A stretch of 64,000 bases of DNA. It comes from a plasmid. The stretch is taken from the NCBI RefSeq assembly GCF_055900595.2, contig NZ_JBVWEU010000002.1. One strand, given 5' to 3'. Both the position numbers and the translations under genes were made by a program. Positions 44,199-44,432 of this stretch are shown here, piece by piece (the first letter of the stretch is position 1; each line of letters opens with the position of its first letter). The notes beneath the pieces were generated by a model, which saw nothing but the letters and a program-made list of their open reading frames with translations, was not told where the DNA came from and ran no database searches.

Positions 44199-44432
44199 GG
44201 CGGTGCCGTGCCTCCATAAAAGCCGGGCGATAAGGCGGGGATGCAGGGGCGCAAGGGAAGCCGCAGCCTGACGCACTCGGCTGACGGGAGTTGGAGGGTG
44301 AAACCGCGAAATCTGAGCGGGTGAACGACCGGAAAATCACGGCAGACGGGAAGGAGGGACCGGGTGACCGCAGCGGCGAAGTGTACCCTTGCATCAACGC
44401 CAGCCCGGCTAAGATGGAGGCACGGCACCGCC
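44199..44432. repeat. 19-bp perfect inverted repeat (GGCGGTGCCGTGCCTCCAT ... ATGGAGGCACGGCACCGCC) bracketing ~196 bp of GC-rich non-coding DNA; third Frpo/ssi-like candidate
   Basis: Both arms read directly at 44199-44217 and 44414-44432. Lies upstream of the first leading-region operon. Confidence 0.6.

Follow-up and report, generated by a model that had tools for sequence, protein, structure and literature searches.

An imperfect hairpin of about 235-236 nt at coordinates 44198-44433, on the plus (transferred) strand of a 64,000-nucleotide stretch of plasmid DNA (contig NZ_JBVWEU010000002.1; the whole stretch is referred to here as the window), is very probably a class 2 single-stranded DNA (ssDNA) promoter, the orthologue of F ssp2, driving an antirestriction operon from the transferred strand (T-strand). 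Its extent is defined by ssDNA folds, 95.7% identity to F and covariation. A first-pass annotation made from the sequence alone had proposed a promoter on the transferred single strand, and this is supported by 95-96% identity to published copies, by the T-strand location and by the polarity. The finding is correct but not new, because the F orthologue has been published and functionally dissected; the exact hexamers, the start site and F-like behaviour of the window copy are our predictions. What is new here is comparative only, comprising covariation of the fold, the view of several hairpins as one family, and the basal helix as a candidate determinant of braking. Promoters of this kind allow anti-restriction and anti-SOS genes to be expressed minutes after entry, before the double-stranded state is reached, and are central to the establishment of resistance plasmids in new hosts. 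The correct annotation of the hairpin is class 2/ssp2, and neither Frpo nor a primosome site, which matters for the reading of leading regions because the hairpin occurs in at least 5000 sequenced plasmid records.

The window contains three perfect inverted repeats of at least 14 nt with a gap of up to ~400 nt. The longest (27 nt) is at 35973-36028 and the shortest (17 nt) is in the oriT region at 34990-35033. The second longest (19 nt) forms the base of the hairpin, with GGCGGTGCCGTGCCTCCAT at 44199-44217, its exact reverse complement at 44414-44432, and a gap of 196 nt, just as first annotated. This repeat is beyond chance, because the longest inverted repeat never exceeded 14 nt in 30 local-composition shuffles of the window. 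Its arms can be lengthened to 30 nt with three mismatches (44199-44228 / 44403-44432; 90% complementarity). Single-strand folding, proposed earlier as a check, gives one long imperfect hairpin for the plus strand of 44180-44450 (−69.9 kcal/mol, z = −5.2, with 0 of 200 shuffles as stable), and the complement of the same segment folds at −61.8 kcal/mol (z = −4.4). When 33-48 kb was scanned by folding in 300-nt segments, it ranked second among the plus-strand hairpins of the leading region, behind the class 1 Frpo at 42.3-42.9 kb, and its 300-nt fold of −75.6 kcal/mol just clears the threshold of −75 used by Wen et al. (PMC12672017). No second copy was found in the window by blastn or with the family core pattern allowing two mismatches, and none of the five matches to Rfam 15 at gathering threshold in the window falls within 44.1-44.5 kb. 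The T-strand of the hairpin is 37.6% G, and inspection by eye shows several GGG runs in the 5′ half of the window copy; a G-quadruplex was considered and dropped because these runs are absent from the family consensus.

The window belongs to an F-type (IncF) plasmid. Rfam matches locate the traJ 5′ UTR and FinP at 34.2-34.3 kb and sok at 38.0-38.1 kb, which places the hairpin, 9.1 kb from nic, inside the leading region. The nic consensus (GTGGGGTGT/GGTGCTTT) is on the plus strand at 35119-35135, with nic at 35127/35128, and the plus strand is therefore the one transferred, entering rightwards from ~35128. The T-strand is the template for three minus-strand genes whose order is identical in F and R64: a KlcA/ArdB-type antirestriction gene (yfgB/yubI; 43735-44160, ATG at 44160) that is the first of the driven operon, a gene for a DUF1380 protein (43266-43688, assigned by Pfam), and lastly a 63-aa ORF (43078-43269). 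The antirestriction start codon is 38 nt from the hairpin base, with a ribosome binding site (GGAGG) at 44169-44173. The yfgB/klcA product matches Pfam PF03230 (E = 1.9e-26), is 97.9% identical to F YfgB and 94.3% identical to R64 ArdB, and is labelled an antirestriction protein in the matching records; no NCBIfam model matched any of the three small operon proteins, for which Pfam gave PF03230 and DUF1380. The first-pass annotation had assigned the promoter to the first operon of the leading region, which holds for the direction of transcription; however, the operon is oriT-distal, 9.1 kb from nic, and therefore enters the recipient last.

To the right of the hairpin are, in order, a small terminator-like hairpin with a T-tract, a ~170-nt 3′ remnant of yffB, the 43-bp repeats of sopC (from 44731), and sopB/sopA. 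The terminator-like hairpin (44467-44485, on the minus, coding strand) is just upstream of the large one, is kept in sequence in F and R64, and would insulate the operon from read-through. No conventional double-strand sigma-70 promoter with canonical spacing was found on either strand between 43.0 and 45.1 kb. The arm core CCGTGCCTCCA occurs a third time, at 44598-44608 within the yffB remnant, as a direct repeat of 44206-44216 that is complementary to 44415-44425; it could be a chance occurrence or the leftover of another hairpin arm.

The hairpin region is 95.7% identical over 302 nt to the yffB-yfgB intergenic region of F (coordinates 10445-10746 of the F record, L001). It is 95.0% and 94.9% identical to the hairpins located 5′ of klcA and ardA in R64, the IncI1 plasmid that stands in for pESBL in our sequence comparison, and 81% identical to the homologue given as candidate "Frpo′ 4" by Samuel et al. 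(Nature 2024; PMC11541004). The window copy is found at ≥99% identity in at least 23 plasmid records. Wen et al. (NAR 2025; PMC12672017) describe homology-independent mining of pESBL hairpins that yielded three classes of ssDNA promoter, with start sites mapped by 5′ RACE, including those of the pESBL class 2 copies; the klcA and ardA hairpins are class 2, and classes 2 and 3 are conserved in F. The F copy is named ssp2 in a preprint (bioRxiv 10.64898/2026.01.09.698686), which places it between yffB and yfgB and reports that it drives the anti-restriction gene yfgB. The primers of that preprint map to 10084 and 10175 of the F record, just upstream of the aligned region, and our computed F-R64 ArdB identity of 92.9% compares with its value of 93%. 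The preprint also reports that nascent complementary strands halt exactly where the F ssp2 stem ends, a point equivalent to the outer end of the 3′ arm of the basal helix, that the synthesis halted is that coming from the sopC side, that UvrD resolves the roadblock, and that deleting ssp2 cuts the induction of PsiB by half and reduces transfer into hosts that restrict. The window copy has the attributes of class 2: homology to the F and R64 copies, a leading-region position on the T-strand with a T-strand-templated gene downstream, and, from fold prediction and alignment, a large stable ssDNA stem-loop with −35 and −10 boxes rebuilt in the stem.

Both putative boxes are on the plus strand in the 3′ arm. 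A −35-like TTGCAT (44389-44394) is base-paired to the 5′ arm, and a −10-like TAAGAT (44410-44415) follows 15 nt past it; in the folds, the −10 bases AAG (44411-44413) are unpaired and face AAA (44218-44220). The 3′ arm of the perfect 19-bp basal helix (44414-44432) would be the non-template strand, containing the last two −10 bases and a start predicted near A44422, with the 5′ arm (44199-44217) the presumed template for the first transcribed bases. Placing +1 seven nucleotides past the −10 box, at A44422 (template ~44209), predicts a leader of ~50 nt. These −35/−10 and start assignments are our own reading of the sequence, set independently of published structure figures and RACE coordinates. 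The polarity fits only the T-strand, in which the template on the 5′ arm runs straight into the yfgB leader.

The arrangement TTGnnn-15 nt-TAnnnT is present on the 3′ arm of all the copies inspected (13 + 17), three of which have one substitution in TTG. Among the 53 aligned copies described below, T193 is kept in 50 and G194 in 47, and positions 4-6 of the −35 box vary with compensatory changes in the partner arm; there is therefore a sequence constraint on one part of the box and a pairing constraint on the other. TAnnnT (T-12, A-11 and T-7) is retained in six variants among the 13 copies obtained from BLAST or the literature, and because TAnnnT and CACGGC were imposed by our scan pattern, independent evidence for them comes only from these 13. 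The spacer is 15 nt in every counted copy, shorter than the canonical 16-18, and 4-5 extra bases in the 5′ arm face it. The middle three −10 bases are always opposite A-rich bases in an internal loop, and with A-11 already unpaired this should favour open-complex formation. Relative to F the window copy has two extra stem mismatches between the −35 and −10 boxes (CAAC for CCCC, opposite GGGG), and the predicted energies are −71.7 kcal/mol for the window copy and −83.2 kcal/mol for F. The weaker stem could change promoter strength; the −35, −10, bubble and spacer length are the same as in F.

Diverged copies of the hairpin were assembled from BLAST matches in Raoultella, Erwinia, Enterobacter and Pantoea, from three published candidates, and from a pattern scan of one genome per species. 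Keeping only scan matches with a matching 5′ arm and a hairpin filtered out chance matches in GC-rich genomes and gave 59 hairpin-positive copies, from which two further non-members were then removed; the scan copies are mostly from Enterobacterales and often occur two or three to a contig. For covariation, 53 copies with <96% identity were used and the minimum free energy structure of the window's own copy was projected onto the alignment. Watson-Crick pairs occupy 69% of cells, as compared with 24-31% after displacing the partners by 1-3 columns and 58 ± 0.4% after shuffling the columns, and there are 67 extra pair types versus 22-38 with displaced partners and 53 ± 3 (maximum 64) with shuffled columns. 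At positions free of the search pattern, pair 7-230 switches cleanly between C-G (26 copies) and T-A (25), and pair 28-209 between G-C (35) and C-G (17); the pairs from 43-198 to 46-195 each show four pair types. The T-strand fold is more stable than that of its complement in all 53 copies, by a mean of 7.9 kcal/mol, and on the T-strand G.T cells (125) outnumber A.C cells (53). This asymmetry shows that the folding strand is the transferred strand and not the mRNA-sense strand.

Conservation across the 53 diverged hairpins reaches at least 95% in two interior motifs. These are AAGCCGCAG in the 5′ half (44258-44266, plus strand), which is outside the search pattern, and CCGGGTGA (44360-44367, plus strand; family consensus GAACGGGTGAG), which is mostly unpaired and ~20 nt upstream of the −35 box. 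They may be a contact site for the polymerase or another factor. The gene beyond the hairpin base encodes a methylase in 18 of 57 family copies, KlcA/ArdB in 17, ArdA in 11 and other products in 11, and in most of these copies it begins 28-44 nt past the base. A single hairpin family thus precedes klcA, ardA and methylase genes across the Enterobacterales and fronts a set of anti-restriction genes, and this is new comparative material. Modules of the klcA/ardA/methylase type were also seen, each with its hairpin, in genome records labelled Streptomyces morookaense, Collinsella, Oscillospiraceae and Oscillibacter (loci L025, L033, L034, L036, L072 and L079). Four of these loci have a klcA 95-100% identical to that of the window, and L033 has ardA and a methylase; these enterobacterial-type modules in non-enterobacterial records are likely to reflect contamination or misbinning.

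Taken with the published behaviour of F, these features suggest how the element would operate. During conjugation the plus strand would enter the recipient 5′ to 3′ from nic (35127/35128), and the arriving 44198-44433 segment would fold into the long imperfect hairpin, whose stem would rebuild a sigma-70 promoter with the 3′ arm as non-template and the 5′ arm as template strand. RNA polymerase would begin near A44422 (template ~44209), where the centre of the −10 box is already unpaired, and transcription would leave through the hairpin base, leftwards along the single strand into yfgB/klcA and the two small genes. Synthesis of the complementary strand would remove the hairpin and switch the promoter off. 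Lacking a double-strand promoter, the operon should therefore be expressed within the single-stranded phase, as published for F. Induction in transconjugants has been demonstrated by others for F and pESBL (PMC12672017; bioRxiv 10.64898/2026.01.09.698686).

A large hairpin on the T-strand could also be a primosome-assembly or single-strand initiation (ssi) site that loads PriA or primase, as the first-pass annotation had suggested alongside a promoter. Transcripts of class 1 Frpo can act as primers (Masai and Arai 1997, as described in papers citing it), and priming by an ssp2 RNA is conceivable. However, the hairpin has no similarity to ssiE or to ssiD/Frpo, and its conserved −35/−10 geometry and fixed distance to the ribosome binding site and start codon fit a promoter for mRNA. 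The ssp2 preprint (bioRxiv 10.64898/2026.01.09.698686) reports that loci past ssp2 in F convert later, that ssp2 deletion speeds conversion, and that early rifampicin-sensitive conversion occurs at ssp1 loci and not at ssp2. The F element thus delays complementary-strand synthesis instead of priming it, leaving the ssi role unsupported, and we regard it as improbable. A further reading is that the hairpin here is mainly a brake on complementary-strand synthesis with little or no promoter activity because of its variant spacer stem, yfgB being expressed only after double-strand conversion. An intact basal helix, one of the most stable in the family, and the two extra mismatches between −35 and −10 speak for it, but the unchanged −35, −10, bubble and spacer length, the lack of an available double-strand promoter for yfgB, and the occurrence of this copy in at least 23 plasmid records at ≥99% identity make this very unlikely.

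The minus strand also folds (z = −4.4), and covariation alone does not distinguish the strands, such that the structure could act at the RNA level as a terminator or attenuator of read-through, or as an element of the yfgB mRNA 5′ UTR. Against this, the T-strand gives the stronger fold in every one of the 53 copies and favours G.T over A.C, a separate small terminator-like hairpin is already present upstream, there is no Rfam family match, and RNA begun at the predicted start would include no more of the hairpin than its last ~10 nt; we consider such a role highly unlikely. A double-strand feature tied to sopC or recombination (for example a cruciform, a palindrome bound by a protein or the end of a mobile element) is brought to mind by the hairpin's location ~300 bp from the sopC 43-bp repeats and by a sopC junction unlike that of F. 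This has scarcely any probability in our estimation, because what accompanies the hairpin from plasmid to plasmid is klcA, ardA or a methylase gene and not sopC. It is away from any sopC in F, R64 and the other plasmids fetched, it immediately precedes one of these genes in every case and always in the same orientation, and it is present as a single copy in the window.

The basal helix of the hairpin may bear on a difference between two F elements. The preprint (bioRxiv 10.64898/2026.01.09.698686) describes ssp3 as a promoter as strong as ssp2 but without roadblock activity, and names no structural cause. The perfect basal helix is 20 bp in F ssp2, 19 bp in the window, 15 bp in the IncI1 copies (followed by one mismatch and 4 bp more), and 12 bp in the ssp3-like hairpin, with a family median of 10 bp. 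In predicted stability the basal helices of F and the window rank first and second among the 53 family members at about −29 kcal/mol, as compared with about −20 kcal/mol for the ssp3-like hairpin and a family median of −17. We tentatively offer the possibility that a long, perfect, GC-rich basal helix is the reason why ssp2, and not ssp3, blocks the complementary strand, and that classes 2 and 3 are one ancient family. If so, single mismatches such as the one in the IncI1 copies would tune the strength of the brake, and the two classes would share a core (GCCGTG/CACGGC, AAGCCGCAG and GAACGGGTGAG) and differ mainly in the brake.

Several other features of the leading region were observed. The oriT-proximal class 1 promoter, Frpo1, is missing: a clean 351-bp gap at 37281-37312 relative to 17623-17973 of the F record, just upstream of a ygeA-like ORF (36965-37252, minus strand), leaves only the first ~31 nt of ssiD, and collinearity with F is retained to either side of it. 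Deletion of Frpo1 in F reduces the transconjugant frequency to ~25%. The single class 1 Frpo copy of the window (42303-42857) is 96.2% identical over 556 nt to F Frpo1 and its upstream flank and ~85% identical to Frpo2, which occupies the collinear position in F; its greater similarity to Frpo1 suggests a past exchange between the repeats. A (GAA)n tract of about ten units (~42868-42900, T-strand) lies between the end of the klcA operon and this Frpo, and is the source of homopolymeric K, E, F, L and S stretches in spurious ORFs. Closer to nic, at ~600-790 nt, is an orthologue of F ssiE (35723-35911; 97% identity). The ssiE sequence tabulated by Samuel et al. (PMC11541004) is AT-rich and unrelated to ssiD/Frpo, although the introduction of the Samuel et al. 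2023 preprint groups ssiD and ssiE together as Frpo. The 27-nt inverted repeat at 35973-36028 has a 2-nt loop and is located just past ssiE, at the end of a ygeB/DUF932-like ORF (36025-36927, minus strand) and ~250 nt downstream of a convergent plus-strand ORF (35126-35728); it is probably a bidirectional terminator.

The closest known system is F ssp2, which shares with the window copy its locus 5′ of yfgB/klcA, strand, hairpin, −35/−10 sequences and perfect basal helix (20 bp in F, 19 bp in the window). F ssp2 differs in lacking the two stem substitutions between −35 and −10 that weaken the predicted fold of the window copy. The surroundings also differ, in that F has a 3.65-kb block between sopC and the end of yffB (L001 6517-10168) that is absent from the window (44433-44731). 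This block contains the ssp3-like hairpin, a DNA methylase operon, a DUF1380 gene and yffA/B, and its absence leaves the window with a single class 2 hairpin in its leading region and none of the methylase type.

The class 1 ssDNA promoters (Frpo/ssiD, Frpo1, Frpo2 and ColIb-P9 ssi1-3; Masai and Arai 1997; Bates 1999; Couturier 2023, PMC9849209) operate on the same principle, as leading-region T-strand hairpins with a mismatched sigma-70 promoter that are zygotically induced and turned off upon conversion to double strand. They differ in having an A/T-rich apical palindrome and in driving ssb/psiB and ygeA/B, and have no detectable similarity to the window hairpin. A class 1 identity was rejected in that blastn at word size 7 gave no match to ssiD or to the ColIb ssi2 copy ('ColIb Frpo2'), and the window's own class 1 Frpo/ssiD copy is at 42311-42660, upstream of ssb. 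An ssiE identity was likewise rejected, with no similarity to the hairpin and ssiE itself mapping to 35723-35911. The comparison with F Frpo and ssiE that the first-pass annotation recommended thus finds the hairpin unrelated in sequence to both. The PriA-type sites such as F ssiE (D90180) are likewise single-strand-specific and in the F leading region, but of unrelated sequence.

Class 3/ssp3 hairpins share with the window hairpin GCCGTG...CACGGC around the predicted start, AAGCCGCAG, CGGGTGAG, and the TTGnnn-15-TAnnnT arrangement with a bubble in the −10 box. They are shorter (~173-188 nt versus ~236 nt), ~55-60% identical overall, and the ssp3-like hairpin of F has a weaker basal helix (−20.2 kcal/mol, with a 12-bp perfect run); no class 3/ssp3 hairpin was found in the window using the family core pattern with two mismatches. 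By position, class 3 hairpins are just past sopC in F (from which we take that hairpin to be ssp3), upstream of the DUF1281-methylase operon in R64, and directly 5′ of the methylase in Erwinia and Enterobacter, the methylase operons being of the M.EcoGIX type. Because the core is common to both, classes 2 and 3 appear to be a longer and a shorter form within one family. The RNA-polymerase-dependent single-strand origins, such as the M13/f1 minus-strand origin and the rolling-circle ssoA, also rely on recognition of a promoter-mimicking ssDNA hairpin by the RNA polymerase of the host, and yield a short primer for DNA synthesis. Whereas those origins make a primer, hairpins of the type in the window make an mRNA and, in F, slow DNA synthesis.
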